The notes beneath the pieces were generated by a model. That model was not told where the DNA came from, did no database searches, and saw only the letters and a program-made list of their open reading frames with translations. Made by a program: the position numbers and the translations under genes. Shown piece after piece: positions 2,854 through 64,000 of a stretch of DNA of 64,000 nucleotides (position 1 is the stretch's first letter; every line of letters begins with the position of its first letter). Source of the DNA: Bacteroidales bacterium (GTDB lineage: Bacteria > Bacteroidota > Bacteroidia > Bacteroidales > TTA-H9); assembly GCA_028689615.1 (NCBI GenBank), contig JAQVCV010000001.1, forward strand, positions 133,697-197,696. The letters are read 5' to 3'.

Positions 2854-2945
2854 TGGGAGAGGGGAGTGGGGAGTGGGGAGTGGTTAGTGGATAGTGGGGA
2901 GTGAATAGTGGGGAGTGGGGAGTGGGGAGTGGTTAGTGGGGAGAA
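2854..2945. repeat. AGTGGNN heptamer array (AGTGGGG/AGTGGTT/AGTGGAT/AGTGAAT)
   Basis: Read directly. Fills the whole space between the start codon of 1153-2853 and the 3' end of the four-helix-bundle gene. Confidence 0.9.
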
Positions 2946-3301: not shown

Positions 3302-3302
3302 A

Positions 3303-4077: not shown

Positions 4078-4085
4078 AAAATGGT

Positions 4086-4619
4086 TTATTCATCCTTCAT
4101 TAAAATATTAAAAGAACTGGGAACCTCTGTACATCGCCGAAAACAGAAGGTATCCTGAGTGGTTAGAACCTGATTGAAAATATTCTTTCTTGAGAAAAAA
4201 AGCAAAGTAGAATCATTCAAAACCTTTGCCCGAAGCTCCTCCGATTTGAACATTTGAAACTTATCGCGACCACCCCATACACGATTTACTATAAGAGTGT
4301 CATTTCTGAAGCAATAAATTCCCCAGAAATATGGTATAAAACGAGCACTATTGTTGACATTACAACTTTTTATTATGCTGTCTTTGCTAATGACATCATT
4401 GTAGAAATAACCATCCGGGAAATAGATTTGTCTTTCCAAATCATCATTACCGAATTCCTCCAAGTAAACCCCATTTATTATCCTATTGTATAAGCCGGAA
4501 TAATTCTTTTTTATAAGCAATATTGATTTATCATAGGGGAACCTTTCTGTTCTACATGAATATAATATCAGCAGCAACAATAAAGCTGCTTTAATGTGAT
4601 GTAGTCTTATATTTACCAT
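4086..4619 (-). CDS. Putative immunity lipoprotein for orphan toxin 2
   Basis: Start chosen at MVNIRLHHIKAALLLLLILYSC (lipobox Cys). Its ATG overlaps the toxin stop (ATGGTAA). AT-rich. Shares LND(S/T)TLL and other motifs with 6587-7189. Confidence 0.65.
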   Translation of the reverse strand: MVNIRLHHIKAALLLLLILYSCRTERFPYDKSILLIKKNYSGLYNRIINGVYLEEFGNDDLERQIYFPDGYFYNDVISKDSIIKSCNVNNSARFIPYFWGIYCFRNDTLIVNRVWGGRDKFQMFKSEELRAKVLNDSTLLFFSRKNIFNQVLTTQDTFCFRRCTEVPSSFNILMKDE

Positions 4620-6346: not shown

Positions 6347-6392
6347 GAGGTTGGGGTTAGAGCGACAAAGTTAGAAAAGATTTGTAAAACTT

Positions 6393-6566
6393 AGAAGGAT
6401 TTGATAGTTTCATTAAGGAAAGGGAGAGCTGCCCTCACCTCCTTCACTTCTATATAGCGCTGGGTTCGATTACCCGAGGCATCGTAGTCGAAATAGACGG
6501 TTTGGGAGAAATCGCATAAAGAAATAGTTATTATAATTAAAAATAATGAAACTACAGACTTCATAT
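6393..6566 (-). CDS. 57-aa leader ORF: signal peptide + single YD repeat (copy of the 5' end of 3622-4077)
   Basis: Hand translation: MKSVVSLFLIIITISLCDFSQTVYFDYDASGNRTQRYIEVKEVRAALPFLNETIKSF*. Below the 60-aa cutoff of the ORF track. Whether it is expressed is unknown. Confidence 0.5.
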
Positions 6567-6586
6567 GATAATAGTTTAAGAATTAA

Positions 6587-7189
6587 TCAATCTTTTCGTT
6601 TTCTGCTTTCATGAACACCTCTCTGGTACCAGCGTTTGTTTATATACCAGATTTTTGTACTGTCAGGTTTTAATTTGGTTTTATAAAATCTAAAAACGTT
6701 CGGCTCATTCTTTTCAAATTCAATATCATAGTGTGTGTTCTTGTTGGAAGTAATTAGTAACGTTGTGTCATTTAACAAAACCCCTTTGCTAATAAAAAAC
6801 TGACGAACAATAAACTCAGAATAGTTCAATCCAAAACCTTCAGAATAAAATGTGTCATTTTTTATATAATAATCTCCCCAGATTTCATCAGCATCATATT
6901 TGTACCATTTCAAAATCGTTTTCATACAACTATCCGGATCAGACCAAAACTCTGAACCTCTTGGTAAAGCAGAACCAATAGTCCGTTTCTTCCCATCTGC
7001 ATAAAAAGCTATTCCTCCGGATTTATTTACTGAAACATAAATTCCATCATATCTTAATTTGAATCTATTATCACTCTTATAAACTGGTTGTTTAAATACC
7101 GAAAAGTCTTTCCTAATTGTGATAGGTATAAAACAAGAACTAAGAGTAATCAACATCAAAAGGCCAACAGATACGTTAATTTTCTTCAT
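6587..7189 (-). CDS. Putative immunity lipoprotein for orphan toxin 1
   Basis: Start chosen at MKKINVSVGLLMLITLSSC (lipobox), 1 nt after the toxin stop at 7191-7193. AT-rich. Paralogous to 4086-4619. Confidence 0.65.
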   Translation of the reverse strand: MKKINVSVGLLMLITLSSCFIPITIRKDFSVFKQPVYKSDNRFKLRYDGIYVSVNKSGGIAFYADGKKRTIGSALPRGSEFWSDPDSCMKTILKWYKYDADEIWGDYYIKNDTFYSEGFGLNYSEFIVRQFFISKGVLLNDTTLLITSNKNTHYDIEFEKNEPNVFRFYKTKLKPDSTKIWYINKRWYQRGVHESRKRKD

Positions 7190-7190
7190 T

Positions 7191-8798
7191 TCAAAACGGG
7201 TAAAGCGAAAAAGGATTAATATAACCACCTTGAAAAAACAAGCGAGAATCCGGACCTAATTCAGAATTAAAGTACGGTGAATGAACAATATGCTTATGTA
7301 AGCCATTCTGAAACAAATCCTGAACCCAGGGAGCGTCTATGCCTGTTCGTGAATTGGTGTTGCCGTTTCGGTATCCAAGGTATAAGCCTGCCCATAATCT
7401 GCTGCCAGAAGAGTAGGTGTATCTTTCCTTCTTATTTTTTCCCCAGATTGGAGACTCCCATGTTTCATTTCCGCCTTTAAAATAATCGGATTGTCTCTCT
7501 GCAACTGGCGGTGCGGTAGTGAATAAATTAAAACCAACAGTATGATTTCCAAGTCCTATTTCGGCGGCAGCAGTTCGTGCTTTATCCCCTCCAACAAAAG
7601 CATCATTTGTCATTCTAAAAGAAAAATCACCCTTCTGATAACCCACAGCCCAGTTGTTTTGTGGGTGGCTCCCCGAAAAAATTGTCCCGCCAAATGAGAA
7701 GTATTGATCGTTTGCCCTATCATAATAGGATATTCCTCCACTATAATTAAACCCACTAACCTTTGTAGCAGCCCGATCAATAAGATTACCAAAACCAGAC
7801 GAATAGCCAGCACCGAGATTAAAAGAAAAATCCCCAACGGCTACCGATGAGCTTGCATTGGCATAAAATCCACCCAAACCAAAGCCTGCCGAAGCACTAA
7901 AACCGCCATTGTTATATCCAACTGATAATCCAATATTGAATGGGTCTAGGCCAAATGAAAAGGAACCAAATGAAACTCGCGCACAACTGCTCATCCCGTT
8001 TGTTACAGTCATCGATTTATTAAAAGCACTTGCTAAAGCATTACTTTTACCTTGAATAACATTACTCAAAAACTCAGCAGTTGATGCGATTATCATAAAT
8101 GGGATTGCAAGGAACTCCCCGCTCGGATCAGTATATCTCAATGGATTATTCAAACAATAGCTGTACCGGTTCAGATTTTGTGGGTTATCGGGAGCCTGTA
8201 TGTAGGGGTCAGCAGAAAGAAATCTTCCTACCAACGGGTCATAGGCACGGCCGTTCATGTTGATGAGTGTGAACGGGTAGAGGTGCTCATGGAAAGTAAA
8301 TCCCCGGTCAATGAGGGGCGAGGGGATAGAGGCGAGGGACGTGTAGGGCTGCCAGGTGGCAGGATCGCGCCTGTTGCCCCACGCATCAAAACTTAACTCC
8401 TGAACCACATTACACTCGGCATCGGTGATGAGGTTAGGTGAACCCAAATGATCGGTGTAGATGTAGTACATCTTCCCCTGGTTGTTCTGATCAATCACGT
8501 ACATGGCAAACAGCGAACCATCGCCACCGGTGAGGTAGTGGATCTTTTGGATGGTGGCTTCGCCGGGTTTCTCGATGATTTCGAAGCCGTCGCCGACCGG
8601 GTTTCTGGCCAATGCCACTCCCAACCCATGCTTTCCAGAAGCGCCGTTGTTCAATGCGTTAGTGGCCAGCCTTTTCCTGGTGCGCCGCCTCCCAATTTGT
8701 GGCGGAGAAGCCCGTCTTGTTCCCTTTACCACAGACTCCACTGGCACCCGTTGGGGGTGTGGTGCAGAGGTGGCAGAATGTGGTTTGTAGGCGAACAT
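7191..8798 (-). CDS. Orphan Rhs core-tip + C-terminal toxin cassette 1
   Basis: Conserved core block at 8112-8597 ending NPLRYTDPSGEF, then a divergent tail. Start set at MFAYKPHSA by homology with MIAHKPPSA of cassette 2 (ORF track start is 8819). Confidence 0.8.
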   Translation of the reverse strand: MFAYKPHSATSAPHPQRVPVESVVKGTRRASPPQIGRRRTRKRLATNALNNGASGKHGLGVALARNPVGDGFEIIEKPGEATIQKIHYLTGGDGSLFAMYVIDQNNQGKMYYIYTDHLGSPNLITDAECNVVQELSFDAWGNRRDPATWQPYTSLASIPSPLIDRGFTFHEHLYPFTLINMNGRAYDPLVGRFLSADPYIQAPDNPQNLNRYSYCLNNPLRYTDPSGEFLAIPFMIIASTAEFLSNVIQGKSNALASAFNKSMTVTNGMSSCARVSFGSFSFGLDPFNIGLSVGYNNGGFSASAGFGLGGFYANASSSVAVGDFSFNLGAGYSSGFGNLIDRAATKVSGFNYSGGISYYDRANDQYFSFGGTIFSGSHPQNNWAVGYQKGDFSFRMTNDAFVGGDKARTAAAEIGLGNHTVGFNLFTTAPPVAERQSDYFKGGNETWESPIWGKNKKERYTYSSGSRLWAGLYLGYRNGNTNSRTGIDAPWVQDLFQNGLHKHIVHSPYFNSELGPDSRLFFQGGYINPFSLYPF

Positions 8799-8821
8799 GG
8801 GGTTGGTTTGGAGCGACAAAG

Positions 8822-8992
8822 TTAGAAAAGATTTGTAAAACTTAGAAGGATTTGGTTTTCATTCAGGAGTGAGGGAACCTGCTTCACCTCCTTCACCTCT
8901 ATGAAACGCTGGGTGCGGTTGCCCGAGGGGTCGTAGGTGAAATAGACGGCTTGGGAGAAAGCGCTAAAGGTTGTTAGCAGTGCAACGAACAT
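8822..8992 (-). CDS. 56-aa leader ORF: signal peptide + single YD repeat (second copy)
   Basis: Hand translation: MFVALLTTFSAFSQAVYFTYDPSGNRTQRFIEVKEVKQVPSLLNENQILLSFTNLF*. Not in the ORF track (under 60 aa). Confidence 0.5.
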   Translation of the reverse strand: MFVALLTTFSAFSQAVYFTYDPSGNRTQRFIEVKEVKQVPSLLNENQILLSFTNLF

Positions 8993-9085
8993 AACAGTAA
9001 GTTTTCCCTTATTCTCATATGTTTGATGTAATTATATTAATTCATTAGACATTAGGCTCAATCTTGTTTATTAATGATAGGTACA

Positions 9086-9736
9086 TCAATTTGAGTTTTC
9101 TCTATCCCATTCTTTTTGCACCTTCAATAAAGATTTAATCATTAAATCATAAATTCTTTTATTTTTCAATCGAACAGGTTCAAGAAATTCAGGAAGTTTT
9201 TTTGGAGGGCATGGGGAGTCGAAATAAAAGAACCAAAACCCTAAAACCGATGAATTGTCAAACTTAATTAGATTTTTAATAAAAACATCTAGATTCTCTT
9301 GAAGTAAATTATTTGCTCCTAATTTAAAGAAATTAACAGCATCTGCCTGCCAGCATCCGTTCTTAGCAATATTAATGATACTGATAAATCTCCTATTTAT
9401 ATCTATTTCATGCAAAGTGTAATAAATATCTATAATATGATGCTTAGCATTATCATACAGAATTGATTTGTAAAATTTAGTTGATATTTCATTATCAATA
9501 CATTTAACAGAGTCTTGATATCCATAAATTTTTACAAACTGGGCAAAAGTTTTTGGGAAAGCCTTAAAAAACAAATCTCTATAAATTCTATTTGAGTCAA
9601 CATTATCAGTCCGATCAATTAATTTCACAAGATGAGACAAAGTGTCAGCCTTAGAATTAATTTTGCTATCGATTGTTTGTGAGTAAGTAGTCGAAAACAC
9701 AACTAATAAAGAAATGTAGAAAAACAATCTTTTCAT
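9086..9736 (-). CDS. Putative exported immunity protein for the main Rhs toxin
   Basis: 216 aa, signal peptide MKRLFFYISLLVVFSTTYSQ. Starts 15 nt after the Rhs stop. AT-rich. No recognised family. Confidence 0.6.
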   Translation of the reverse strand: MKRLFFYISLLVVFSTTYSQTIDSKINSKADTLSHLVKLIDRTDNVDSNRIYRDLFFKAFPKTFAQFVKIYGYQDSVKCIDNEISTKFYKSILYDNAKHHIIDIYYTLHEIDINRRFISIINIAKNGCWQADAVNFFKLGANNLLQENLDVFIKNLIKFDNSSVLGFWFFYFDSPCPPKKLPEFLEPVRLKNKRIYDLMIKSLLKVQKEWDRENSN

Positions 9737-9751
9737 TTTCAGTAAATATTA

Positions 9752-12700
9752 TTAATACAAATTAAAATAAAAAGTTAGCCCTCTTTGTTCAGCATGAAGA
9801 TAAAGCTGTTTAAACATATTCATTGCATCGCCGCTGCTCCATACTGCATTAGCTGAATAACTTGTACCGGGCAAGAAACATGCCTTAGTATTTGACGGAA
9901 AATTTCCCGTATGAATTAATACCTTTGTACGACCCGGAATATTCATAATTTCAAAAGCATCAGGATATTTTACGGAGCTATAGCGGGAAACTTCATAAAC
10001 ACCTGCTTGAATTCTAAGTCCAGAACCTTGAACAGTGGAGGATGGCCCTGCCGGTTCTAAAAAAAATCCTTCTGTATTATCATCAATACAATAACGGCTT
10101 ATGGTAGATTGGTCTGTTTCAGCAAATCGCTCAACATTAAAATAAAATTTATTTTCGTTTACTATTGGATTAATTGTTGACTTTAGATTACCTGTACTCA
10201 ATTCCGAGTTACTAAAATTCTGGCTAACGAACGGTAGTCGTTCGGGTGCCTTAAAAATTCTATCACCATTCCAAAAAGTTCTGCCACCATTTCTTGCGTC
10301 TAATCCACCAACAAGCCCACCAAAAGCAGCACCGGTAAATCCACCAATTAATCCGCCAAAGATGGCACTTTTAAACGCCTCGTCACCGGTTTTACCCTGA
10401 AGAAGAGCATTACCATATCCAGCTACTGCTCCTGAAGCAAACCCTGCTCCACCACCAATGGCAGCACCCGACCAAAAACTTGTTGCAGCAACCTGAGCAG
10501 TAGAACTGCCGATTGCACCTGCCCAGAAAGAACCACCTGCATAGGCAGAACTTATTCCTGCACCTACACTTGCGCCAATTGCTCCTGCCGCAGCACCAAT
10601 CCCAAAACTTAACAAACCCTTTGCGTTAAACTCACACCCACCCATTATCCAGTTGGCGATTCCGCCAATGATCATCGCTTCAAGAAAGAATTCACCCTGC
10701 GGATCACTATACCTCAATGGATTATTCAAGCAATAGCTGTACCGGTTCAAATTTTGGGGGTTATCGGGTGCCTGAATGTAGGGATCGGGGGAGAGGAAAC
10801 GGCCAACCAAGGGGTCATAAGCCCGGCCGTTCATGTTGATGAGGGTGAACGGATAAAGGTGCTCATGGAATGTGAAACCGCGATCAATCAGGGGCGAGGG
10901 GATAGAGGCGAGGGACGTGTAGGGCTGCCAGGTGGCAGGATCGCGCCTGTTGCCCCACGCATCAAAACTTAACTCCTGAACTACATTGCACTCGGCATCG
11001 GTGATGAGGTTGGGAGAACCCAAATGGTCGGTATAGATGTAGTACATCTTCCCCTGGTTGTTCTGATCAATCACGTACATGGCAAACAGCAAACCGTCGC
11101 CACCGGTGAGGTAGTGGATCTTTTGGATGGTGCCTTCGCCGGGTTTCTCGATGATTTCGAGTCCGTCGCCGACGAAGGTTTTTTTCGTGATAACTACATC
11201 ACTTTGAGTCAATTCCTGATAGGTTCTTTGGTGGTCATAACCATAAAAGATAGTCAAATGGTAAGGGGCCTCGGTAATGGAGGTCATCTTGTTGTAGGAA
11301 TTATAAGCAATGGTTTGTGGTGCTTGAGGCCATTGGGCAGGATTTGCATCAGCCGAAATAAGCGCATATGGGTTGCGCGTACCACAGTCGTACTGTGCAT
11401 CTTCAAAGATAAACCCTAAAGAATTACTTTTACCCATGACATTGCCTAAAAGATTGTAGTCAGTATTTCCGGATACTACCCCGTTTAGGTAGGTTACGTC
11501 CAACCGATCAAGATTATCGTAAGTGAACGACTCATGTAAGGTGGTAGAGCCGGCAATTTTCTTTCTCCAAGTCAAATTGCCCACATTGTCCCATTCGTAA
11601 AGCCTTTTAAACAGCTCAACATCCGCTCCTTTTTTTACGATCTGGGCTGTAAGCAACCCCCTGTCGTTTTCGAAAACCGATTCGGCTATAACACCATTGC
11701 CATGCAATGCCTTGGTTAGCCTGCCGTAGTTATCGGTGGCATTTACCGCCCAAAGCAGACATGGATCGTAACCACCCTTGTACAGTTTAGCAACTTCACC
11801 ATTGGGTGCATATTCCGTTAAAATGGTTAAGCCATCAGGAGTTTCCTTCCTTTTCACTCTGCTGAAAGGATCATAGGCAACACTCTGGGTATAATTGACC
11901 CCGTTGATTTGATTGGTTATCTGACTAACTCTGGCATACTCATCAAAGGTGTATTCGGTGGAGTGTCCAGGATAACTAACCGACCCCAGCAACCCGTTGC
12001 CAGAAGGTTTGTTATCATAAATCCAGTTTGTGGTACCTTCTGGTTCAATTCGCTTAGTCATCCTTCCCAGTATATCATATTGGTACGTTGTGGCCACGTC
12101 CTGCCGGGAATCGTCACGTGAAACCATTTGATCGAAAGCATCGAATTTAAAATCAATGGTTCCTGCTGCCGGATCAATAAGCTTTGTGCAATTGCCATGG
12201 CTGTCGTACTCGTTCACTATGCTGGTTTCCTGCGGTTGGCCTGAATGATAGGTGTTCACAACATTGCCATCACAGTCGTGTTGAAAAATCACACTACTAC
12301 CGCTCGCATCTTTGCTCTGGGTAAGCCATCCGGCAACGTTCTTAGTCTGAACGGTCTGGCGGGAAAACATGTCGGTGTATTTCGTAACCAGACCTTCATA
12401 CGTCACCGAAGTGGCGCCCCGGGAAGTGGTTGTAGCAACTACCCTGTCAAGGGCATCGTAGGTATAGGTGGTGGTAATATCGGAAAGAGAGGACAAGGCA
12501 TAATAATAGGCACTGGTCTGGGTATGCAGCCTTCCCCTCGAGTCATAGGTTTTGTCGCTATACATCTTTTTCCCTTTAGCATCATAGCTTACAGTTCGAA
12601 GCTCCTGTCCCATGCGGTTGAAAAAAGTAAGTGCTTCAGAGGTTCCTGATGTTTTGGTCCAAACATAGTACAACCCTTCGGGCGGATTGTCGTCATGCTC

Positions 12701-19604: not shown

Positions 19605-19667
19605 AAACAAACACCCGTGAGCAACATTACACAAAAGGCTGGAATGGGTAGTTCAGGGGATTACTAC

Positions 19668-19745
19668 ATTTCTCCTATAAATCGTTGTTAAAAACAGAAC
19701 TGAACTTATGGGTGATTCGCTGACTTGATTTTCAAATCTTCGAAC
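19668..19745 (+). repeat. Divergent copy of the TTTCTCCTATAAATCC repeat family
   Basis: atttctcctataaatcgttgttaaaaacagaactgaacttatgggtgattcgctgacttgattttcaaatcttcg aligns with the 50972 consensus. Confidence 0.75.
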
Positions 19746-20420: not shown

Positions 20421-20530
20421 CATGACTTTGTTTCTGCTGTTAAGCCTCTTAAAACAGACCTGAACTAACCGATAATCCACTGGTTCGATTTTTAATCGTC
20501 TGTGGGTAATGCTGTTTCATGCATTTTTGA
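20421..20530 (+). repeat. Copy of the TTTCTCCTATAAATCC repeat family (divergent 5' end)
   Basis: ...aaaacagacctgaactaaccgataatccactggttcgatttttaatcgtctgtgggtaatgctgtttcatgcatttttg aligns with the 50972 consensus. Confidence 0.75.
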
Positions 20531-20550
20531 CATTAAAAAGTTGCTTTATC

Positions 20551-20949
20551 GCAACTCGGAAGCTGTGTAAAGAGACTTTGCAACTAGGGAAAGAGACTCG
20601 GGAGCTGTGGAACGAGACTCGGGAGCTGTGGAACGAGACTCGGGAGCTGTGGAACGAGACTCGGGAGCTGTGGAACGAGACTCGGGAGCTGTGGAACGAG
20701 ACTCGGGAGCTCTGGAACGAGACCCGGGAGCTCTGGAAAGAGACTCGGGAGCTGTGGAACGAGACTCGGGAGCTCTGGAAAGAGACCCGGGAGCTCTGGA
20801 AAGAGACTCGGGAGCTGTGGAACGACACTCGGGAACTGTGGAACGACACTCGGGAACTGTGGAACGACACTCGGGAGCTGTGGAACGACACTCGGGAGCT
20901 GTGGAACTGTCGCTTCCTGAAATTACTTTGTCGCTTCCTGAAATTACTT
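20551..20949. repeat. 21-bp satellite: 17 units of GAGACTCGGGAGCTGTGGAAC-type plus 2 units of TGTCGCTTCCTGAAATTACTT
   Basis: Units counted by hand: 20551-20907 is 17 x 21 bp, with 3 variant classes in blocks. 20908-20949 is 2 x 21 bp. There are no spacers between units. Confidence 0.95.
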
Positions 20950-21186
20950 GACAGATTTAAACTAAAAAACTGTAATTATTGGCAAATCTAAAACATCTTT
21001 CTGAGTTATTCAGGATTTTAAATTGATATTCCTGAAAACAGCAGCGAGGTGATGGTATTTACTGGTTTGATATTCATATTTTTTCAAGTTCCTGTTTTGG
21101 ATATTTTCCTGTTCTATTTTCCTGATTTAATATCACAATTGAATGTGTTTTCCTGTTCAATCATTTTTTCTGGAATCATTTTCCTG
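20914..21186 (+). repeat. Cluster of eight same-orientation TTCCTG motifs
   Basis: TTCCTG at 20914, 20935, 21029, 21089, 21106, 21119, 21150 and 21181, usually as TTTTCCTG(T/A), plus a variant TTTCTGG near 21168. Confidence 0.8.
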
Positions 21187-50960: not shown

Positions 50961-50971
50961 GGTTTGGTTGG

Positions 50972-51165
50972 TTTCTCCTATAAATCCTTGTTAAAACAGA
51001 ACTGAACTTATGAACAATCCACTGGCTCGATTTCTATTAGTCTGTGGGTAATGGCCTTTTCATGAATATTTGTTTTGTTTCTCCTATAAATCCTTGTTAA
51101 AACAGAACTGAACTTATGAATAATCCGCTGGCTCGATTTCTATTAGTCTGTGGGTAATGGCCTTT
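50972..51165 (+). repeat. Two tandem copies of the ~105-bp TTTCTCCTATAAATCC repeat (second copy truncated at its 3' end)
   Basis: Copy 1 at 50972-51073 and copy 2 at 51078-51165. Consensus: tttctcctataaatccttgttaaaacagaactgaacttatgaataatccgctggctcgatttctattagtctgtgggtaatggccttttcatgaatatttg. Confidence 0.9.
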
Positions 51166-51671
51166 CCTGACTTCGACATAGGGACACCCAAATACACTAT
51201 CAATAATATTGATGCAATTTATCTATTGTTGAATCATTTAGGATTTGTTGCCACCAAAAAGCAGTGACACTTAACTTTGCATGGAGCATCAGAGATTTTT
51301 GCCATAGAATTCTTGAAATGACCGTAGTCAACCCGCCGTTGGGAATAAGGGGTAGCCTAAGCAACCCGCGAGTGAGGGCACTTGCTTCCAGAAAAAGGTC
51401 TGCCGAGAATTGCCCGAACGGCTCGGGTTGCGCAACGGAGGTCATTTCTTAGAATTCTGGCAAAAATATCTGAGCGGATCAAGAGGGCGTTTCTTTGCTA
51501 CTTTCTTTGCGCCCGATTGGGCAAAGAAAGTAGAAGCTTAATCCGATACTAATGAATGGAGATTGCTGGTTCGAAAGGATGCCAGGACACCCGATTGAAT
51601 AAATTTCAATTTACAAATAATTGTTTATAAAAGAATTATACAATTAGGATTGAAAATGTGTCGAAGTCAGG
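51166..51671. mobile_element. 506-bp non-coding element with perfect 13-bp terminal inverted repeats (MITE-like)
   Basis: CCTGACTTCGACA at 51166-51178 and TGTCGAAGTCAGG at 51659-51671. Sits where the second repeat copy is truncated. No convincing ORF and no obvious target-site duplication. Confidence 0.55.
51301..51461. other. Long-range imperfect inverted repeat (about 22-nt arms) enclosing a GC-rich ~116-nt core
   Basis: gccatagaattcttgaaatgacc (51301-51323) pairs with ggtcatttcttagaattctggc (51440-51461). Inner hairpin CCCGA acggc TCGGG. A second perfect 13-bp hairpin CTACTTTCTTTGC...GCAAAGAAAGTAG lies at about 51499-51534. Confidence 0.5.
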
Positions 51672-51682
51672 AGTTGGTTTGG

Positions 51683-51785
51683 TTTCTCCAATAAATCCTT
51701 GTTAAAACAGAACTGAACTTATGAATAATCCGCTGGCTCGATTTCTATTAGTCTGTGGGTAATGGCCTTTTCATGAATATTTGCT
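51683..51785 (+). repeat. Full copy of the TTTCTCCTATAAATCC repeat
   Basis: Near-identical to 51078-51165 and continues through ...ggccttttcatgaatatttg. Confidence 0.9.
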
Positions 51786-51798
51786 TTGTTTGCTTGTT

Positions 51799-54216: not shown

Positions 54217-54285
54217 AACATTTCGATTAATAGGATGCTTATGTTTGAAGAACTAACCCACGCAAATGTTACAAAAAATGATTTT

Positions 54286-54429
54286 TTTTGTTTGTCTTGT
54301 TTGTTCTGTTTGTTTTGTTTGTTTTGTTTGTTCGATTTGTTGTTTTGGTTCACCCATCATCCCATCTCTTGTCTCTCGCCTCCCGTCTCCCTATCACTAT
54401 CCGGGACGCCTCCCGCCTCTCCCCTTTTG
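54286..54429. repeat. T/G-rich heptamer-like array followed by a C/T-rich tract with a hairpin-core copy
   Basis: ttgtttgtcttgtttgttctgtttgttttgtttgttttgtttgttcgatttgttg, then ctcgcctcccgtctccctatcactatccgggacg (54375-54408). Confidence 0.85.
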
Positions 54430-56208: not shown

Positions 56209-56400
56209 GAGTGCAAAGATAGCGGGTTGGAGGATAAAAGCAAAAGAGAGGGGGGAGGGGGAGGGAGAAGAGGGGGAGAGGGGGAGAGAGGGGCGAGGGG
56301 CGAGAGGCGGAGAGGGGGACAAGGGGATAGACATCGGAAGAGGGGCGTCCCGGGTAGTGATGGGGAGGCGAGGAGAAGTGAAGGGGAAAAACACATGCAA
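56209..56400. repeat. G/A-rich (minus-strand C/T-rich) low-complexity tract with a reverse-oriented hairpin-core copy
   Basis: cgtcccgggtagtgatggggaggcgagg at 56346-56373 is the reverse complement of cctcgcctccccatcactacccgggacg. The adjacent gacatcggaag matches cttccgatgtc at about 913-923. Confidence 0.85.
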
Positions 56401-56423
56401 CCCAAACAAGAAGAGAATCTTAT

Positions 56424-56472
56424 GGATTGAAATAAAACTACACGATAGGTTAGGGTGTAGCTCGACTGAAAT
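56424..56472 (+). repeat. 49-nt hairpin repeat, copy A (upstream of cas6)
   Basis: GGATTGAAATAAAACTACACgataggttaggGTGTAGCTCGACTGAAAT. Stem CTACAC/GTGTAG. 38 of 49 aligned positions are identical to copy B. Confidence 0.7.
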
Positions 56473-56910
56473 GGCCGTCTGGGTTGAAACCTACGAAGGC
56501 AAACTTGTGGAAACCATTTTCGCGCCCAAATCCATTGGCAAAGTGGTGTTTAAGCATGATTTGATGCCAGGCGCCATCAATCGTCCTTCGGCTTTACTTT
56601 ATTGGGGCCACAATCGTGGCAAAAAAACAGTGCCGGAAACTTTTTGCCCGATGCCCAACATCCCTAACCCGATGCCGTGACCGGTGCAACACCCAAGGGC
56701 GGTTTTGAGTTGCGCTTCAACCTGTCCCACTGCCCTCTGGACAAATGCAAGGTGCTGGTGGAGATCAACCAGTCGTGGAACAGAAACGAACACTACACCG
56801 ATTTAAACACCCTCACAACGACGTTGCAGGTTGCCGAAAAAATCACGTTGATTGTGGGGATGCGACAGAATTGCTTACGGCATAGAGAACAAGCAAGGGT
56901 GTTTGCGTAA
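56471..56910 (+). pseudogene. DUF2271-like gene remnant (N-terminally truncated, frameshifted)
   Basis: MAVWVETYEGKLVETIFAPKS...LLYWGHNRGKK... stops at 56678-56680. The motif PDAVTGATPKGGFELRF continues in another frame (56668 onward). No signal peptide. Confidence 0.4.
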
Positions 56911-57007
56911 TGACGAATTTGCTTTCCAGAGAAGTGAATGTTGATTGTTTGGCAACAAACAGTTTGTATTCCCCAAAACCGTACTTTTACGATCTAAAAC
57001 CCAGATC

Positions 57008-57799
57008 ATGCGTTTTCGAATCACCCTTACGTTCAATCAATCCCAACCGGTTCTGTTTCCGGTTGACTACCGTTTTGCTCTTGCCGCTGCTGTTTACCGT
57101 GTGATGGAACAGGGCGACGCAACTTACAGCAAATGGCTTCACGACACAGGTTTTGCCGATGGCAACAAGAGGTTTAAATTCTTCACGCTCTCCCCTTTCC
57201 GGTTTCAGGAATCGGTGTATGAAGCGCGGCACAAGGCGCTGCGCATCCTGTCGCATGAAGCTCAGTTTACCTTTTCGACTTTGCAAATTCCGATGGGCGA
57301 AAAGTTTGTGCAAGGGCTTTTTGCCAACCAACGAATAACCCTTTCGCAACATGGCCACACTGTGCACATGGTGGTGAAAAGCGTGGAGCGACTTCCCGAT
57401 CCGGTGTTTACCGACCAGATGGTGTACAGGGCTGTTGTGCCCGTGGTTGTGTCGGTTCGCGATCGAGAGGTTCACCGCCACGAGCAGTTCCTTCCGCCGC
57501 TTGATGTACGGTATGAAGAATTGCTTCATCGCAACCTGCGGCAGAAACTCGCGGTGGCGATGCAAACCGAAGGGCAACCCCTGACCCTCGCGCCTGATGC
57601 CCCTTTCCGGTTCGTTGTTATCGGCGAAGCGCAAAAGCGTGCCTTTTCGGTAATCAGACCCGACGGCCAACGCCCGATTATCGTCATTGGATACACCTAC
57701 ACCTTTGAACTCGAAGCTCCCCTTGCGCTGCACGAAATAGGCTATTGGACAGGCTTCGGCGAACAAAACTCCTTTGCAGGGTATGTGGAGGTGGGGTGA
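57008..57799 (+). CDS. cas6: CRISPR-associated endoribonuclease Cas6
   Basis: MRFRITLTFNQSQPVLFPVDYRFALAAAVYRVM...YSKWLHDTGF...RFKFFTLSPF. C-terminal glycine-rich loop GFGEQNSFAGYVEV. Confidence 0.85.
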   Translation: MRFRITLTFNQSQPVLFPVDYRFALAAAVYRVMEQGDATYSKWLHDTGFADGNKRFKFFTLSPFRFQESVYEARHKALRILSHEAQFTFSTLQIPMGEKFVQGLFANQRITLSQHGHTVHMVVKSVERLPDPVFTDQMVYRAVVPVVVSVRDREVHRHEQFLPPLDVRYEELLHRNLRQKLAVAMQTEGQPLTLAPDAPFRFVVIGEAQKRAFSVIRPDGQRPIIVIGYTYTFELEAPLALHEIGYWTGFGEQNSFAGYVEVG

Positions 57800-58031
57800 T
57801 TGGGAACGGCAGTTGGCTGTTGGCCTTTGGCTGTTGGCGTATTTGCATGGTTGGGCTGAATTGGTTGGTTGATACAAGGAGGGAGCGAAGGGTGACGGAG
57901 TAGTTTTTCTAAACTGCTTATCAATTGCAAATCAAACTTATTAAATTTGCTGCTTAAAGATTGCATTGGACCTGACTGAAATAAGCTCCATGTCAATTTA
58001 ACTCGTTGCTGAAAGTGAAATGAATTAAGCC

Positions 58032-58547
58032 ATGACGATTACCGGAACCCACTTCAACTATTATTTGATTTGCCATCGAAAATTGTGGCTGTTTGCCAAT
58101 GGATTTCAGATGGAACACACCAGCGATCTGGTTTATGAAGGTTCGCTGATACATGAAACAACCTATACCCATCGGCCTGAGAAATTTAAAGAAATTGAGA
58201 TTAACGGGGTAAAAGTTGATTTTTATGATCCGAAAGAGCAGGTGATTCACGAGGTGAAGAAAAGCGACAGCCATGAGGAGGCTCACGAATGGCAATTGAA
58301 ATACTATATTTTCGTGTTGCAAAATGCCGGAATTGACTGCCGCTATGGCTTGCTGGAATATCCCCGGCTAAGGATAACCCGGGAAGTGGTGCTCAGCGAT
58401 CCCGATCGCCTGACCATTGAAGCCTACCGCCACCATATACAATCCATTGTAGGCAATGCCCAATGCCCCAAAACCATTGCCCGTACCAAATGCAAAAATT
58501 GCTCCTATTACGATTTTTGCTGGTCGGGTGAATCAGATTTGGAATAG
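58032..58547 (+). CDS. cas4: CRISPR-associated exonuclease Cas4
   Basis: 171 aa. GTHFNYYLICHRKLWL, EVKKS and a C-terminal Cys cluster CPKTIARTKCKNCSYYDFC. Confidence 0.85.
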   Translation: MTITGTHFNYYLICHRKLWLFANGFQMEHTSDLVYEGSLIHETTYTHRPEKFKEIEINGVKVDFYDPKEQVIHEVKKSDSHEEAHEWQLKYYIFVLQNAGIDCRYGLLEYPRLRITREVVLSDPDRLTIEAYRHHIQSIVGNAQCPKTIARTKCKNCSYYDFCWSGESDLE

Positions 58548-58615
58548 AAGCCAAGACACAAATACATTTGCATACAACCATTTCTCTAGAACTATTAATC
58601 AATCAGGAATAGCGT

Positions 58616-59620
58616 ATGAAAAAGACCTATTATTTGCTTAACCCGGGTCGTATGTCGCGAGTCGATAATACGTTGAAATTTACTCCGGTAAATGAACAAG
58701 GCGAAGAGGGTCCACCAAAGTTTCTCCCTGTCGAAAATACCGATCAGCTCTACGTTTTTGGAGCACTTGATGCCAATTCAGCCTTGTACAATTTTTTAGG
58801 AAAAAACGACATCACCGTCCATTTCTTCGACTATTATGAAAATTACACCGGAAGTTTCATCCCACGCGATTCGCTTATCTCGGGCAGGATGGTAGTAGAG
58901 CAGGTAAAGGCAGCGTTGGACAACGATCGCCGACTCACCATTGCCCGAAGGTTTATCGAGGGAGCTGCATTTAACATTCTTAAGAATCTTAAATATTATG
59001 ACAACAGAGGGAAAGACCTTCAGCCGATTATAAGAACCATTGCCAACCTGGCTGATACTGTTGGTGATGCCCCCGACATTGCTTCGCTTATGGGAACCGA
59101 AGGCAATATCAGGCAGTCTTATTACGATGCTTTTAACTTAATTCTTAATAGCTTTTCAATGAATGAGCGCAGCCGTCGCCCTCCCCGCGATGAAGTAAAT
59201 GCGCTGATCAGCTTTGGAAACATGGTTTGCTATTCTCAGTGTTTGAGAGCCATTCATCAAACCCAACTTCATCCCGCTGTTAGTTTTTTGCATGTTCCAG
59301 GCGACCGACGTTATTCGTTGGCATTAGACATCAGCGAAATTTTCAAGCCGGTGCTGGTTGACCGCGTAATCTTCAGGGTTATCAACAAGAAGGAGATAGG
59401 TCCTGCCGATTTTGAGCCCAAGCTGGGAGGACTGTTTTTGAAGCAATCGGGGAAGAAAACCTTTATGCAGGCATTCGAAGAGAGGCTCAACGAAACTTTC
59501 ATGCACCGCACCCTTAAGCGCAACGTGAGTTTCAAACAACTCATGCGGCTTGAATGCTACAAACTCATCAAGCACATTATGCAGATTGAAGAATACAAAC
59601 CTTTTAAGATGTATTGGTAA
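58616..59620 (+). CDS. cas1: CRISPR-associated integrase Cas1
   Basis: 334 aa. GNIRQSYYDAF, RSRRPPRDEVNALISFGN, LHPAVSFLHVPGDRRYSLALDISEIFKP. Confidence 0.9.
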   Translation: MKKTYYLLNPGRMSRVDNTLKFTPVNEQGEEGPPKFLPVENTDQLYVFGALDANSALYNFLGKNDITVHFFDYYENYTGSFIPRDSLISGRMVVEQVKAALDNDRRLTIARRFIEGAAFNILKNLKYYDNRGKDLQPIIRTIANLADTVGDAPDIASLMGTEGNIRQSYYDAFNLILNSFSMNERSRRPPRDEVNALISFGNMVCYSQCLRAIHQTQLHPAVSFLHVPGDRRYSLALDISEIFKPVLVDRVIFRVINKKEIGPADFEPKLGGLFLKQSGKKTFMQAFEERLNETFMHRTLKRNVSFKQLMRLECYKLIKHIMQIEEYKPFKMYW

Positions 59621-59637
59621 CATAAAAATGAAAAAAT

Positions 59638-59901
59638 ATGTATGTCGTTTTGGTGTACGATGTGGGAGAGAAACGGGTGGGTAAAATGTTGAAGTTGTGT
59701 CGTCAATACCTCAATTGGATTCAAAACTCTGTATTCGAAGGAAGCATTACTGAGGTGAAGCTTCAGGAATTGATTGTTAAAGCCAAAGGGGTAATGGATA
59801 CAACAACCGACAGTCTGATTGTTTTTAAAAGTCGTGAAGAGAAATGGCTCGAAAAAGAGATTGTGGGGGTGGATCGCAACCGGTTGGATGTGTTTTTGTG
59901 A
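59638..59901 (+). CDS. cas2: CRISPR-associated Cas2
   Basis: 87 aa. MYVVLVYDVGEKRVGKMLKLCRQYLNWIQNSVFEG. Confidence 0.9.
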   Translation: MYVVLVYDVGEKRVGKMLKLCRQYLNWIQNSVFEGSITEVKLQELIVKAKGVMDTTTDSLIVFKSREEKWLEKEIVGVDRNRLDVFL

Positions 59902-60114
59902 GGGAAATGGAGTATCGAATAAACAAGGGAACAGGGGTGAGGCAATGGGGTGACCCCGTGACAGGGTGAAGAGGTGACTTCGTGACGCGATGACAGGTGC
60001 AGAACCCCATAAACAAAACGAATTCAACGAACTCAACAAACAAGAAGGGTGTGACAAGGGGCGAGCTCAAGAAAACAAACAGACCAAGCAAACCTACTAT
60101 GAGAAATAGTCCAC

Positions 60115-60161
60115 GGATTGATAAAGCTACACTATATAATAAGGTGTAGCCCGATAGAAAT
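60115..60161 (+). repeat. 47-nt hairpin repeat, copy B (downstream of cas2, upstream of the effector genes)
   Basis: GGATTGATAAAGCTACACtatataataagGTGTAGCCCGATAGAAAT. Same stem as copy A. Sits at the visible switch to AT-rich sequence. Confidence 0.7.
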
Positions 60162-60299
60162 TAAGATCACAGTGAAACGACAAATAGTCTCATTATTAGG
60201 AATTAAAATACCTAAATAGAATCAACAATTCTAAGACGCACATTAACAAACACATATAGTTATGTTGAAGAAAAAAATTAAAAAATTGTGTTAAAACGC

Positions 60300-60312
60300 T
60301 TGACAATGTCAA
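60300..60312. promoter_or_regulatory. Perfect palindrome TTGACA a TGTCAA (operator-like)
   Basis: Read directly, about 230 nt upstream of the ATG at 60540. Function unknown. Confidence 0.3.
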
Positions 60313-60539
60313 AAGAGTAACTAACTTAGCCGCCGAAAAAAACATAAAAACCGATGTATCTACAGCGGATCAATCATAGGTTCCTCATCATTCCTCCGGC
60401 CTTTCAGCCAGATGCAGCGATCAGCATCCCGTTGCGCTTCAGCTAAGTTGCGGATGGTGTAGGTAAAGCATCATCCGGGAGAGAGGCGGCAATTAAGTAA
60501 GCAAAATTTTTATTTAAACACTATATTTCAGAACATTAC

Positions 60540-61970
60540 ATGAGTATTGAGTATAAAAAAGTTAGCATAGAATGGTTAACGCGACCAACAGGCGATCCTT
60601 TTGCTGATGCAGGTGGTTTTGTGATTGAATACCTTATGAAAGAGCATCCTCAAAAAGACATAATGGAACTTATAGAATATGTAACAAAAGACATATATAT
60701 AGGTGCTTGGAAAGGAAAATTGCACAGCTACTATCATGGTTCAAAGATTACCAATACATCTATAAAGACAGATGAAGAAAGAATTAATGGCACTTTAAAA
60801 CTGTTTCGAGGCATTCTGGATGAAAGCGAAAGTTCAGATTTTGGCTTCTGTCGGATAAGTGGTATCGAAACAAAACTTTATAGCCTTGGAAGAGAAAGTT
60901 TAATGCTTGCCGGTTCAGGAGGGTTTATTAACTTTCATCATAGTTTCGACGAAGGGCTGAAGATGTCAAAAGAAATAGCAATCAGGATGTTTTTTGTCCC
61001 ATTAGCTACAATCCTACTCCAGGGCAAAATTATGCTGCTACACGGAAGTAATGAAAAGGTGACGAAAATATTTGTGCAAAGAAATTGCAAAGCCAATGTT
61101 GATAGAATTGGAAAAATAACTGATGCGGAGGATATAGGAGCTTTAAAATCGGACTTTACTTTAATACCTAATGCACTCTTCGATTTTATCGATCATCTTG
61201 TGATAACTACACCAAATATATCGCAGGATATTTCGCTATCGTTGTATCATTGCTCAAACTTCATAACAAAATCTGAATTACAAATTTATAAGGTACCAGC
61301 GAAGGTGTTTAGATTCTATAGTACATGTTTACAACCCAGGTTTAAAGATGATTGGCTTTCATTTGTTCGTTCGCATTATTCCAATAAAATTCTCAAAAAT
61401 TTTCATTATAACTCGTTAACTGAGCAATTTGAATCCTCAGAGGTAAATACAAATGATGTTATTCGGAAAGATGAGTATAAGCATTTGAATAATACTATTT
61501 TATCAAAATTGCTTAATAATGAGAATATCAGAAAGAACTTTTTGTTCTGGATCAGAAAACATTCATTTAATTTCGATATAGTATCCATTTATCAACAAAA
61601 TATCATTGGTATGAAAAAAGAAACCATTATTAAAATCAAAGAGTTGGCTTCCTTCTTAGTAAGAGAAGAGAATGCCGACACTATCAAAAGAAGGATTAAA
61701 TCCTTAGATGGAATAAAAAATGCTTCAGGACTCAGAAGATTTATCCTTAAAGACATCATTTCAGCAAATTATACTGACGGAAATGAAAGCCCAATTATAA
61801 GTCTCGAAGAATATGTGAATTACTTATTCCCAGATGGATCTTACTGGGCAGAAATCAGAGACTTGCTTCTAATAGCAATCTATCAGGAACTACATGAAAG
61901 AGAACTAATAGATGACGAATTAAAAATCGAACTGACTGTTGAACAAGAAAATGAAAATAATTTTGATTAA
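60540..61970 (+). CDS. Type I large-subunit candidate (Cas8b/Cst1-like) by position
   Basis: 476-aa AT-rich ORF directly upstream of cas7-cas5-cas3. No motif recognised with confidence, so the call rests on synteny and size. Confidence 0.5.
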   Translation: MSIEYKKVSIEWLTRPTGDPFADAGGFVIEYLMKEHPQKDIMELIEYVTKDIYIGAWKGKLHSYYHGSKITNTSIKTDEERINGTLKLFRGILDESESSDFGFCRISGIETKLYSLGRESLMLAGSGGFINFHHSFDEGLKMSKEIAIRMFFVPLATILLQGKIMLLHGSNEKVTKIFVQRNCKANVDRIGKITDAEDIGALKSDFTLIPNALFDFIDHLVITTPNISQDISLSLYHCSNFITKSELQIYKVPAKVFRFYSTCLQPRFKDDWLSFVRSHYSNKILKNFHYNSLTEQFESSEVNTNDVIRKDEYKHLNNTILSKLLNNENIRKNFLFWIRKHSFNFDIVSIYQQNIIGMKKETIIKIKELASFLVREENADTIKRRIKSLDGIKNASGLRRFILKDIISANYTDGNESPIISLEEYVNYLFPDGSYWAEIRDLLLIAIYQELHERELIDDELKIELTVEQENENNFD

Positions 61971-61984
61971 TATTTTTAAGAACT

Positions 61985-63082
61985 ATGAAAAATTTAAAGA
62001 CACAGGGATTTATTTTAATTGATGTAGATGTTGTTGCCTTAAACAATGCCGGGAAAAACACTCAAAGTAACAACGACAATGCCATTGCCACCAAAACTAT
62101 CAGAAAAAATGGCAAAAGTTATGTATATGTTTCAGGACAAGCATGGCGCTTCTGGTGGAGAGAAGCATTACAAAAAAATTTGGGATGGACATTATCTCCA
62201 ATCATTCGAGAAGGCAAAATTGCATTTACAAATGCCGATCCGGTCAGTTATCCGGATGATGATGTATTCGGATACATGAGGGCGGCTAAAGATGCTGAAC
62301 TAAATGAAAATGGAGAGCCGGTAAAAGATAAACGAGGCAGTATTAAAATGACAAATGTGACGGTTACCAGGATCTCACCACTTAAAAACTCGGCCATAAT
62401 TTCAGCGGCAAGTGTTCGCCCTGAGCAAAATTGGTCAAGTATGGCCAGACAGGAGGGCGATGCTGTTCCGTATGAGAAACAAGAATATAGTGCGATAATG
62501 AAGGGGATGTTTAGTTTAGACCTTTCAATGATTGGAGCTTTCTCGAATTACAATCGTACAGGATTTAAGAATCTATCCATAGCTCTTCAAGAAAAAGCAA
62601 TAGCGGAAAATGCTATAAAAATTGATGATCCATTCGTAAAAGCCTCGAATGGAATGCCTCAAAAACTCATACAACTTCCGAAGCACATACGGGAAAAAAG
62701 AGCCGTAGATACGATTCTTGCTCTAAAGAATATTGCTGGTGGAGCTATGCAAACAAATAACATGGGAGATGTTACTCCAAAATTCATTATTCTTGCCACC
62801 ACGAATACCGGAAATCATCCATTTAGTCATATTGTGGGAAGCAAAGGGCAACGTGATGAAGAGGTTGTATTTAATTTTGAAGGACTTATCGAGGTGCTGA
62901 AGGATTACAAAGAATCATTTCAAGGAACTATATATATAGGCCGAAGAAGCGGATTTATGGATGAAATAGGAAACGATCTGGCCTCATTGAATGAGCTTGC
63001 AGATATACCTAAAGTGAAAGTTTTATCAGTTAATGAAGCTATAGATCAGTATTGTGAACAAATGAAATCACAGATAGAATAA
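61985..63082 (+). CDS. cas7: Cas7 backbone subunit (Cst2/DevR-like)
   Basis: 365 aa. VDVVALNNAGKNTQSNNDNAIATKTIRKNGKSYVYVSGQAWRFWWREAL. Confidence 0.8.
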   Translation: MKNLKTQGFILIDVDVVALNNAGKNTQSNNDNAIATKTIRKNGKSYVYVSGQAWRFWWREALQKNLGWTLSPIIREGKIAFTNADPVSYPDDDVFGYMRAAKDAELNENGEPVKDKRGSIKMTNVTVTRISPLKNSAIISAASVRPEQNWSSMARQEGDAVPYEKQEYSAIMKGMFSLDLSMIGAFSNYNRTGFKNLSIALQEKAIAENAIKIDDPFVKASNGMPQKLIQLPKHIREKRAVDTILALKNIAGGAMQTNNMGDVTPKFIILATTNTGNHPFSHIVGSKGQRDEEVVFNFEGLIEVLKDYKESFQGTIYIGRRSGFMDEIGNDLASLNELADIPKVKVLSVNEAIDQYCEQMKSQIE

Positions 63083-63750
63083 TGAAGGCCACTCGTATAA
63101 AGATAAACACATGGACTTCAAGTTTCAGGTTTCCAAATCTGATGAGCGCTTTTCAACCAACACTTGATGTTCCACCGATTAGTACGATTATGGGGCTTAT
63201 AAACGCGGCCGCTGGGTATTATATTCAAAATCGAGAAATCTCACTTGGATACTATTTTGAATATTCAATGAAATCTGTGGACCTGGAATCCATTTATCAG
63301 ATTTCTCTGCATCGTACTAAATCAGGGATATCTCCAAGTAATATAGCGATTCCAAATGTTATCCAAAGAGAATTTTTATATGATTGCCAATTATATCTGT
63401 TCCTTGCTGACAATGAAATTATTGATTACTTTTACAATCCCAGGTATCCTCTGCTTTTGGGACGAAGTAGTGATCTAGCCGGAATTGAAAGCATAAAGGA
63501 GGTTGAAATAGATACTGTGCTGAATGCTAAATTGGCTGGTCAAGTTATTCCCTTCAATGGCAACTATCTCCCTGGTGTAATACAGGCGCTACCCCGCTAT
63601 TTTACTAATACTATTCCTAGGAAAAATATTGGAACAGAACCATTTTCTGTAATATCATACGATAATCCAATTAATTCAAATCTAACTGGATATAAATCCA
63701 ATCTGAATGAATTTGATAGCGATCTATTCTTTCATCATTTAAGATTATGA
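63082..63750 (+). CDS. cas5: Cas5 (Cas5t-like)
   Basis: 222 aa. TWTSSFRFPNLMSAFQPTLDVPPISTIMGLINAAAG. Start overlaps the cas7 stop by 1 nt. Confidence 0.8.
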   Translation: MKATRIKINTWTSSFRFPNLMSAFQPTLDVPPISTIMGLINAAAGYYIQNREISLGYYFEYSMKSVDLESIYQISLHRTKSGISPSNIAIPNVIQREFLYDCQLYLFLADNEIIDYFYNPRYPLLLGRSSDLAGIESIKEVEIDTVLNAKLAGQVIPFNGNYLPGVIQALPRYFTNTIPRKNIGTEPFSVISYDNPINSNLTGYKSNLNEFDSDLFFHHLRL

Positions 63751-64000
63751 ATAAATCACAACCGGAGGTCTGGGCAAAATCCGGACCTCCTGTTTCTCTT
63801 AAACAACATATTGCAGAATGTCTTCTATTTATGAATTCACTGCAGAAGGCTTTTCAGCGGCTTCCTATTGCAGATGCTGAACATTTTTGGAGTATTCTGA
63901 AAATAGGCATTGTATTACATGATCTTGGGAAGGCTCATAATGAATTTCAAAAAATGTTAGAAGGTAAAAAATCTCGTTGGTACCATCAACGACATGAATT
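63747..64000 (+). CDS. cas3: Cas3, N-terminal HD nuclease domain (runs off the window)
   Basis: Hand translation: MNKSQPEVWAKSGPPVSLKQHIAECLL...IGIVLHDLGKAHNEFQK...WYHQRHE (HDLGK and RHE HD-domain motifs). ATGA overlap with cas5. Confidence 0.8.
   Translation, partial: MNKSQPEVWAKSGPPVSLKQHIAECLLFMNSLQKAFQRLPIADAEHFWSILKIGIVLHDLGKAHNEFQKMLEGKKSRWYHQRHE

Follow-up and report, generated by a model that had tools for sequence, protein, structure and literature searches.

Two directly repeated units beside the adaptation genes of an array-less Bacteroidales type I-B locus are probably vestiges of a decayed CRISPR array

[quoted passage not shown] We consider it probable, at roughly 60%, that both copies derive, as paralogous vestiges, from a decayed CRISPR array and are a non-functional relic. 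In each, a degenerate repeat would have left its 3′ tail (...GGATTGA(AA)T), followed by a 39-nt segment of spacer length that chances to hold a 6–7-base-pair palindrome; the repeat-derived part would comprise the first ∼10 nt of the copy and roughly 8–25 nt to its left. An earlier note on this DNA had offered three hypotheses for the pair: junction scars of the event that placed the bracketed block, a regulatory element shared by two cas operons, or degenerate solo repeats left from a lost array. The last comes closest: tail and position fit it, but the hairpin and the right arm do not match the repeat of this CRISPR family.

Copy A (56424–56472) and copy B (60115–60161) are direct repeats 3.69 kb apart; their letters, coordinates and common orientation are as first described, and all features below lie on the + strand unless stated otherwise. 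A gapped alignment reproduces the reported 38 identical columns of 49, with one 2-nt gap, and the likeness ends abruptly at the left-hand GGATTG and the right-hand GAAAT. The Smith-Waterman score of the pair is 42, compared with 24.1 ± 2.3 (maximum 34) for 200 shuffled queries over the whole window. The exact palindrome CTACAC-N11-GTGTAGC occurs at two sites in the 64 kb, both in the copies, and the expected count with up to two mismatches is merely 0.46 per window. It lies within the 39-nt, spacer-length segment that is common to both copies: at 56438–56460 in copy A (CTACAC-GATAGGTTAGG-GTGTAG, in the segment 56434–56472, which ends in ACTGAAAT) and at 60126–60150 in copy B (GCTACAC-TATATAATAAG-GTGTAGC, in the segment 60123–60161). 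The half-sites are identical and the inner 11 nt differ, in agreement with the earlier description of a kept stem and a varying loop. The hairpin described as conserved is real in that both palindromes are exact, but thermodynamically only that of copy B stands out: it folds better than shuffled sequences (z = −2.7 to −3.1), whereas the fold of copy A is unremarkable or marginal (z = −1.2 alone, +0.2 with flanks). An argument from compensatory changes in the hairpin of the L143 lineage was dropped because the alignment is ambiguous and the fold is no better than shuffles.

The left edges of the copies resemble the repeats of related arrays. Relatives were fetched as 80 loci via Cas1 (64–69% identity, mostly Bacteroidales) and a further 37 via Cas8b1 (38–74% identity over the best-matching segment); single loci are cited below by L numbers. 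In more than 80 related arrays the cas strand carries a repeat of 29–31 nt, CTnnnAATCGnACC-N4-TGGAATTGAAAY. Both strands of the window were scanned with 37 distinct 18-nt repeat tails from the relatives, and a sole locus on either strand, ATCTTATGGATTGAAAT, ending at 56433, lies within two edits of any of them. This sequence covers the 5′ end of copy A and the 7 nt to its left, and the closest tail is ACCTTATGGAATTGAAAT from L088 and L092. The null expectation of the scan is 0.65 loci per window, so that a match somewhere is unremarkable; we estimate the chance of a match at copy A's place at roughly 1 × 10−4 to 7 × 10−4. The pseudo-repeat that ATCTTATGGATTGAAAT terminates spans 56404–56433 (its 5′ limit is approximate), ends in the exact 8-nt handle ATTGAAAT, and shares its last 10 nt with the first 10 nt of copy A. 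Copy A has the 3′ tail expected of a family repeat, the handle ATTGAAAY preceded by ...TGGA, and lies one edit from the 14-nt tail TATGGAATTGAAAT. The comparison with CRISPR repeats proposed in the earlier note thus relates copy A's tail to the family repeat; of the handle that the note had suspected at the copies' ends, ATTGAAAT at the 5′ end of copy A stands, but the terminal GAAAT has no independent support. The counterpart at copy B is a strongly degenerate pseudo-repeat ending ...AATAGTCCACGGATTGAT (60092–60122), homologous to copy A's tail. Copy B begins with the last 8 nt of this pseudo-repeat, in which strain substitutions cluster and which sits 190–214 nt past cas2, where the first repeat of the relatives' arrays sits.

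Further eroded tails lie in the same non-coding DNA. On the + strand downstream of cas2, 14-nt repeat tails match four times in 2.1 kb, compared with 0.42 matches expected from the window background. These matches span three lineages, at 60209 in the window, at 307 and 329 in L146, and at +124 in L143. The window's own match, TTAGGAATTAAAAT (60196–60209), has one mismatch to GGAATTGAAAY and lies within two edits of a 14-nt tail; no block of the intergenic region is better conserved across the three lineages, and as TTAGGAAT..AAAT it does not vary among the window, L146 and L143–L145. Another possible pseudo-repeat fragment, TAAGATCACAGTGAAAC (60162–60178), matches the end of a second unit in L146 (described below) and is not significant alone. 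Given these repeat-tail matches past cas2, we read the region as a decayed array.

The position of copy B agrees with that of arrays in the relatives. Where contigs are long enough, the canonical order is cas6, cas8b1, cas7, cas5, cas3, cas4, cas1, cas2, leader and array. The order in the window differs from this, with cas6-cas4-cas1-cas2 ahead of the effector genes, and is therefore a rearrangement. Arrays of the relatives begin 200–300 nt past cas2, or 488–598 nt past the end of cas1 in the Cas1-anchored loci; copy B begins 214 nt past cas2 and 495 nt past the end of cas1, within the canonical location. Copy A does not lie at the canonical array place. The family's spacers are 34–38 nt long (periods of 64–68 with a 30-nt repeat), compared with the 39-nt segment of each copy. 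Upstream of A or B we found no homology to the canonical leader boxes of the relatives. No CRISPR array was found in the 64-kb window or in the 1.1 kb known past cas3, and the absence of spacer periodicity reported earlier holds in an array search of the window. The Cas6 of the window belongs to a rare lineage with 6 relatives among 5.8 billion proteins, and shares 27–34% identity with the Cas6 of canonical loci. It accompanies cas4-cas1-cas2 in L005 (88% Cas6 and 95% Cas1 identity) and in L006 (63% and 86%).

The leaders of the relatives have recurrent features of their own. More than 60 of them (L010–L126, 100 nt before the first repeat) contain a TCGACAAC box at about −85, a TAnnTTTG-like box, and ACGG directly before repeat 1. 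A hairpin followed by a T-run stands at about −45 to −20, with arms that vary among AGCTG/CAGCT, GCCCTG/CAGGGC and CTCATT/AATGAG.

Orthologues of the units are found in close relatives. Copy B is present in 10 of 10 strain-variant contigs that cover the site, two of which share its one loop polymorphism; strain polymorphism in copy A is likewise confined to the loop. L146, from the sample that also yielded L005, retains a recognisable orthologue of copy B, with a stem broken by a 3′ arm that reads GTAAAG. At 33–39 nt past this orthologue L146 carries CCCTTATGGATTG..ACTGAAAC. This second unit contains the 11-mer CTTATGGATTG, also present at copy A's left edge, has an end similar to that of copy A, and gives the impression of an A-like unit that lost an internal part. 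The tandem B-like and A-like units of L146 imply that the ancestor probably had at least two tandem units past cas2.

Copy A abuts a rearrangement junction. Immediately to its right is a 5′-truncated, frameshifted pseudogene (56471–56910), the remnant of a 244-amino-acid (aa) gene that is intact in L005 (3822–4556), 4.2 kb upstream of cas6; L005 lacks copy A. The nucleotide match to the L005 gene (blastn, 72% identity) begins at exactly 56471, in the last 2 nt of copy A, with junction microhomology CTGA(AA)T, and tblastn aligns residues 57–171. Since homology to the L005 gene starts at copy A's end, we take copy A to be one side of an illegitimate-recombination junction. The 'DUF2271 remnant' of the earlier note is a real 5′-truncated pseudogene, but Pfam does not confirm the DUF2271 label.

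A second boundary lies to the right of copy B. Among strains of the species (96–100% identity; L128–L136 and L142–L146 compared), cas6-cas4-cas1-cas2 and a 589-nt tail (59902–60490) are joined to one of two partners, cas8b1-cas7-cas5-cas3 or a second cas6 (221 aa) with a RAYT-like gene after it (RAYT, REP-associated tyrosine transposase; REP, repetitive extragenic palindromic). Both tail haplotypes are seen with both partners. Partners are exchanged at 60490, which lies 330 nt further right than copy B; this site (∼60490) is a hot spot for the swapping of effector modules. Copy B and the following 330 nt therefore belong to the adaptation module. No remnant of an ancestral cas6 was found between copy B and the cas8b1 gene (devT). 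The segment 60298–60490 opens with a palindromic, promoter-like TTGACAATGTCAA, continues as a GC-rich non-coding stretch and ends at the strain breakpoint; it belongs to the downstream region of the adaptation module, not to the repeat pair. About 140 nt of this GC-rich stretch appear, by eye, roughly 90% or more conserved among the window, L146 and L143, with surroundings at ∼65%. It may be a structured leader or a non-coding RNA upstream of the effector operon, and has no Rfam match.

From the junction and the tandem units of L146 we infer an order of events in which the ancestor would have carried at least two units in tandem past cas2, as L146 still shows. Copy B would have stayed in situ, about 200 nt past cas2 at the canonical place of the first repeat, amid other repeat-tail fragments. 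Copy A would have been copied from a unit next to copy B in that relic to its present place, where it borders the illegitimate-recombination junction at which the adjoining gene was truncated. If the stretch from the truncated gene up to the second unit was duplicated in tandem and one of the duplicates was then lost, exactly this junction and this bracketing would result; a templated insertion would be an alternative. The units would no longer function in immunity, and the palindrome in their spacer-like part may be incidental.

Several results weigh against the view of the pair as an array relic. At full length, neither copy is recognisable as a family repeat: an nhmmer profile of 39 repeats has no match at A or B, and in position-weight-matrix alignments with and without long insertions both sites rank in noise. 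Copy B's tail (CCACGGATTGAT) is too degenerate for significance alone, although it is homologous to copy A's. Clusters of three handle-like 8-mers arise in most null simulations and, being commonplace, were dropped as evidence. No protospacer was found for the 39-nt segment (phages gave no match or matches at E > 1 only, viral contigs none). Two counts may point to retained function: 1 of 51 segregating sites of the non-coding region falls inside copy B (P = 0.08), and 0 of the 11 differences between A and B fall in the 12 stem positions (p about 0.03, by our calculation). These signs of constraint on the stem are weak. Finally, for this genome the array search covers the window and 1.1 kb past cas3 and the count of copies covers the window, and an intact array or more copies may exist elsewhere in the genome.

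If the unit is retained for a function, the main rival to the relic is a crRNA-like (CRISPR RNA-like) regulatory gene of the CreR/CreA type, in which each copy would provide a handle and a ∼39-nt guide with which Cascade represses a promoter without cleavage. I-B loci commonly contain standalone repeat-like sequences and typically have long intergenic regions around cas6; degenerate mini-arrays occur in about 17–19% of these loci, usually near cas6 or cas8 (Shmakov et al., bioRxiv 10.1101/2023.03.03.530964). The exact handle ATTGAAAT of copy A would suit such a gene, as the first pseudo-repeat of creA/creR retains mainly the 8 handle nucleotides, and so would the weak signs of constraint on copy B. 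However, in 55–64 kb, cas promoters included, neither spacer-like segment has a seed match except in its paralogous copy; a lone 9-mer match at 60518 starts at guide position 7, inside the swappable effector module. A candidate guide after 60209/60210 likewise has no seed match in the window, L128, L130, L143–L145 or L146. The guide would moreover be self-complementary, and Rfam returned nothing at the gathering threshold or at E ≤ 5. No intrinsic terminator and no T-run was found at A or B on the + strand in a scan that accepts loops of 3–8 nt only; the minus strand of copy A reads TTTTATTT, but has no upstream minus-strand gene. The first pseudo-repeat of a mini-array is supported, but the candidates for a recognisable second repeat (60162–60178, or 56473–56490 inside the pseudogene) are not significant. 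The further idea that the hairpin part is itself a second repeat with an insertion was rejected by insertion-tolerant repeat alignment. Substitution hot spots occupy the bases just past copy B, and the L146 orthologue has decayed. On balance we regard a crRNA-like regulator as unlikely.

Clear single-repeat guide genes with terminators, which lend this rival some plausibility, do occur in four relatives. Standalone units made of a canonical repeat, a guide-like stretch of ∼28–30 nt and a terminator hairpin with a T-run lie on the minus strand of L120 (6838–6928), L106 (∼165–250), L105 (368–456) and L006 (∼4990–5076), and by their sequence look like single-repeat crRNA-like RNA genes. L105 and L120 share the terminator hairpin AATCCATTT-loop-GAAATGGATT; that of L106 is nearly the same, whereas L006 has another one. 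The units of L105, L106 and L120 stand 320–400 nt upstream of cas8b1, in divergent orientation.

A broader conjecture would make the 47–49-nt unit a working part of the array-less I-B system, either a crRNA-like RNA with a canonical handle and a self-folding guide or a hairpin substrate for the unusual Cas6 that accompanies cas4-cas1-cas2. Its retention on either side of the adaptation module would then serve to regulate that module or to tie it to interchangeable effector modules. We consider this improbable.

It is more doubtful still that A and B are a low-copy REP-like or MITE-like (miniature inverted-repeat transposable element) palindromic element, recognised or mobilised by a hairpin-specific enzyme such as RAYT, a Y1 HUH transposase. 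The boundaries of the copies are sharp, copy A lies exactly at a breakpoint, and other intergenic repeats abound in the genome. Many related I-B loci also contain RAYT-like genes with flanking palindromes, and one such gene follows the alternative cas6 in the strain variants L130 and L142; that of L130, cut by the contig end, matches NCBIfam NF047646 at E = 7 × 10−11, below the curated cutoff. The window itself contains no RAYT homologue, however, and the RAYT-linked palindromes, CTGACAG/CTGTCAG in 19 fetched loci, are a different family that is absent from it; a link of A and B to RAYT was dropped on both counts. The unit stands at just two sites in 64 kb, each at the cas locus. The exact pattern of hairpin and right arm has 0 matches in 185,579 GTDB representative genomes, viral contigs gave 5 chance matches to the hairpin pattern, all without the right arm, a plasmid search for the repeat gave no match, and no copies of the palindrome were found in the fetched loci outside the source species. 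The generic REP against which the earlier note had cautioned is thus not seen. A mobile palindrome would, in addition, leave the repeat-tail match unexplained.

The RAYT-like gene itself is recurrent in Bacteroidales type I-B cas loci, usually in the cas3/cas4 gap and with palindromes of the CTGACAG/CTGTCAG type. Examples are L096 6123–6521, L095 15509–15907, L100 7853–8305, L120 13470–14009, L124 15864–16265, L093 6926–7438, L112 6775–7374, L007 9180–9590, L130 2794–3228 and L142 1340–1966, among others. A literature search found no paper on an association between a RAYT-like gene and I-B cas loci.

Slightly less probable again, in our judgement, is the palindrome as an operator for a dimeric DNA-binding regulator, or as a Cas6-binding RNA hairpin, controlling two cas operons. 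Identical half-sites around a variable inner 11 nt would suit a dimer, and each operon has one copy upstream. The distances do not suit it: copies A and B lie 535 and 379 nt from the start codons, and a pseudogene stands between copy A and cas6. The devT promoter region (60491–60539) moves with the effector module, and strains swap it without regard to copy B. L146 has lost the palindrome, and L005, L006 and all canonical loci lack it. With no cas-promoter seed match either, the shared regulatory element of the earlier note is unsupported.

The least probable reading is that A and B are att-like or target-duplication scars at the ends of a 3.6-kb mobile cas6-cas4-cas1-cas2 block: directly oriented copies do bracket a set of genes that forms an evolutionary unit found with different effector modules, but they are merely 78% identical, the strain-level module boundary is 60490, the truncated gene that stands between the copies is in synteny with L005, and no integrase or transposase lies nearby. 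Nucleotide homology with L005 runs over 57006–57852 and 58025–59952, not from A to B; at the block level it starts at 57006 and ends near 59952–60066, away from the copies. The junction-scar hypothesis of the earlier note, as worded, conflicts with these two boundaries, with the exception that copy A's right end is a true rearrangement junction, and L005 is a relative of the kind that the note had named as a refutation, with the block but no copy A.

The surrounding locus reads, on the + strand, G-rich simple repeats (56245–56331), copy A, the frameshifted gene fragment, cas6-cas4-cas1-cas2, non-coding DNA and effector genes. By Pfam matches and gene calls the adaptation module occupies 57008–59901, with cas6 at 57008–57799, cas4 at 58032–58547, cas1 at 58616–59620 and cas2 at 59638–59901. 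A 639-nt non-coding region, which contains copy B, separates cas2 from cas8b1. The effector module (60540–64000, again by Pfam matches and gene calls) comprises cas8b1/cst1 (devT; Pfam DevT_C) at 60540–61970, cas7 (devR) at 61985–63082 and cas5 (devS) at 63082–63750, and runs into the start of cas3. The earlier gene calls, Cas6, Cas4, Cas1 and Cas2 followed by DevT/Cas8b1, Cas7 (DevR) and Cas5, are all confirmed, as is the ClC channel gene on the minus strand upstream of copy A. The GC profile also bears out the reported turn to AT-rich sequence after copy B, with a drop from about 43–55% to 24–30% GC. By module (window 56945–64000), GC is about 55% in cas6, about 43% in cas4-cas2 and roughly 30–40% in cas8b1 (to 61000). 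The low GC of the effector module is consistent with acquisition from a lower-GC Bacteroidales donor.

Other repeats are plentiful in the window. Intergenic low-complexity tracts (545–1154, 2855–3631, 54280–54421 and 56245–56380) consist of G-rich 8-mers and heptamers such as AAGAAAC and CACTACT around a repeated core, GGCGTCCCGGATAGTGATCGGGAGGCGAGG, inverted copies of which flank the ClC gene (54366–54421 and ∼56340–56375). A MITE-like unit of ∼106 nt, TTTCTCCTATAAATCCTTGTTAAAACAGAACTGAACTTATGAA...GTCTGTGGGTAATGG, occurs at six sites, twice in tandem (492–526, 19663–19731, 20449–20521, 50966–51186 and 51677–51791). Three tandem gene-scale repeats of ∼2.5 kb lie at 3.9–11.3 kb (3900–11255), and a 21-nt tandem repeat of about 17 copies (Tandem Repeats Finder) lies around 20.5–20.9 kb (20491–20970). 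In L002, a 129-aa open reading frame just past cas3 contains a 60-nt tandem repeat (3783–4172).

Eroded repeat fragments in cas loci are well documented, which makes the A/B pair a routine case that is not to be taken for a new mobile element or regulator. As vestiges of a decayed array, the copies mark the history of the locus: a Bacteroidales I-B system lost the array from its usual place past cas2, cas6-cas4-cas1-cas2 with a roughly 590-nt tail recombines as a unit with different effector modules in close strains, and one relic unit ended up at a rearrangement junction. Should the weak signs of constraint prove real, the element would be a further variant among crRNA-like regulators.

Among known systems, degenerate trailer-end repeats and decayed orphan arrays resemble the pair in their place past cas2, their orientation, and several eroded, irregularly spaced tails that have lost periodicity. 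They differ in that here the whole array is gone from its usual place, cas1, cas2 and cas4 look intact, and one unit has been copied to the other side of the adaptation genes. The SRUs of Shmakov et al. (2023, 'Widespread CRISPR repeat-like RNA regulatory elements') are likewise degenerate repeat fragments outside arrays in type I-B cas loci, placed in a long intergenic region by cas6 or cas8, with the 3′ (handle) end of the repeat best kept and a proposed origin in array truncation or duplication of a terminal unit. Unlike them, A and B have no predicted target with seed and protospacer-adjacent motif and no recognisable second repeat; their spacer-like part is palindromic and duplicated, and one of the two sits at the junction with a pseudogene, beyond the locus proper. 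The CreA/CreR mini-CRISPRs (Li lab; types I-B, I-E and V-A) share a pseudo-repeat that is mainly an 8-nt 5′ handle, followed by a sequence of spacer length, near cas promoters. What defines them, partial complementarity to the promoter of a cas or toxin gene, was looked for here and not found, and no toxin gene is adjacent. With REP/RAYT systems the pair shares a short palindrome of conserved stem and variable loop, and RAYT-like genes in related loci and in a strain variant; it differs in having two copies only, a palindrome of another family, and a window devoid of RAYT.

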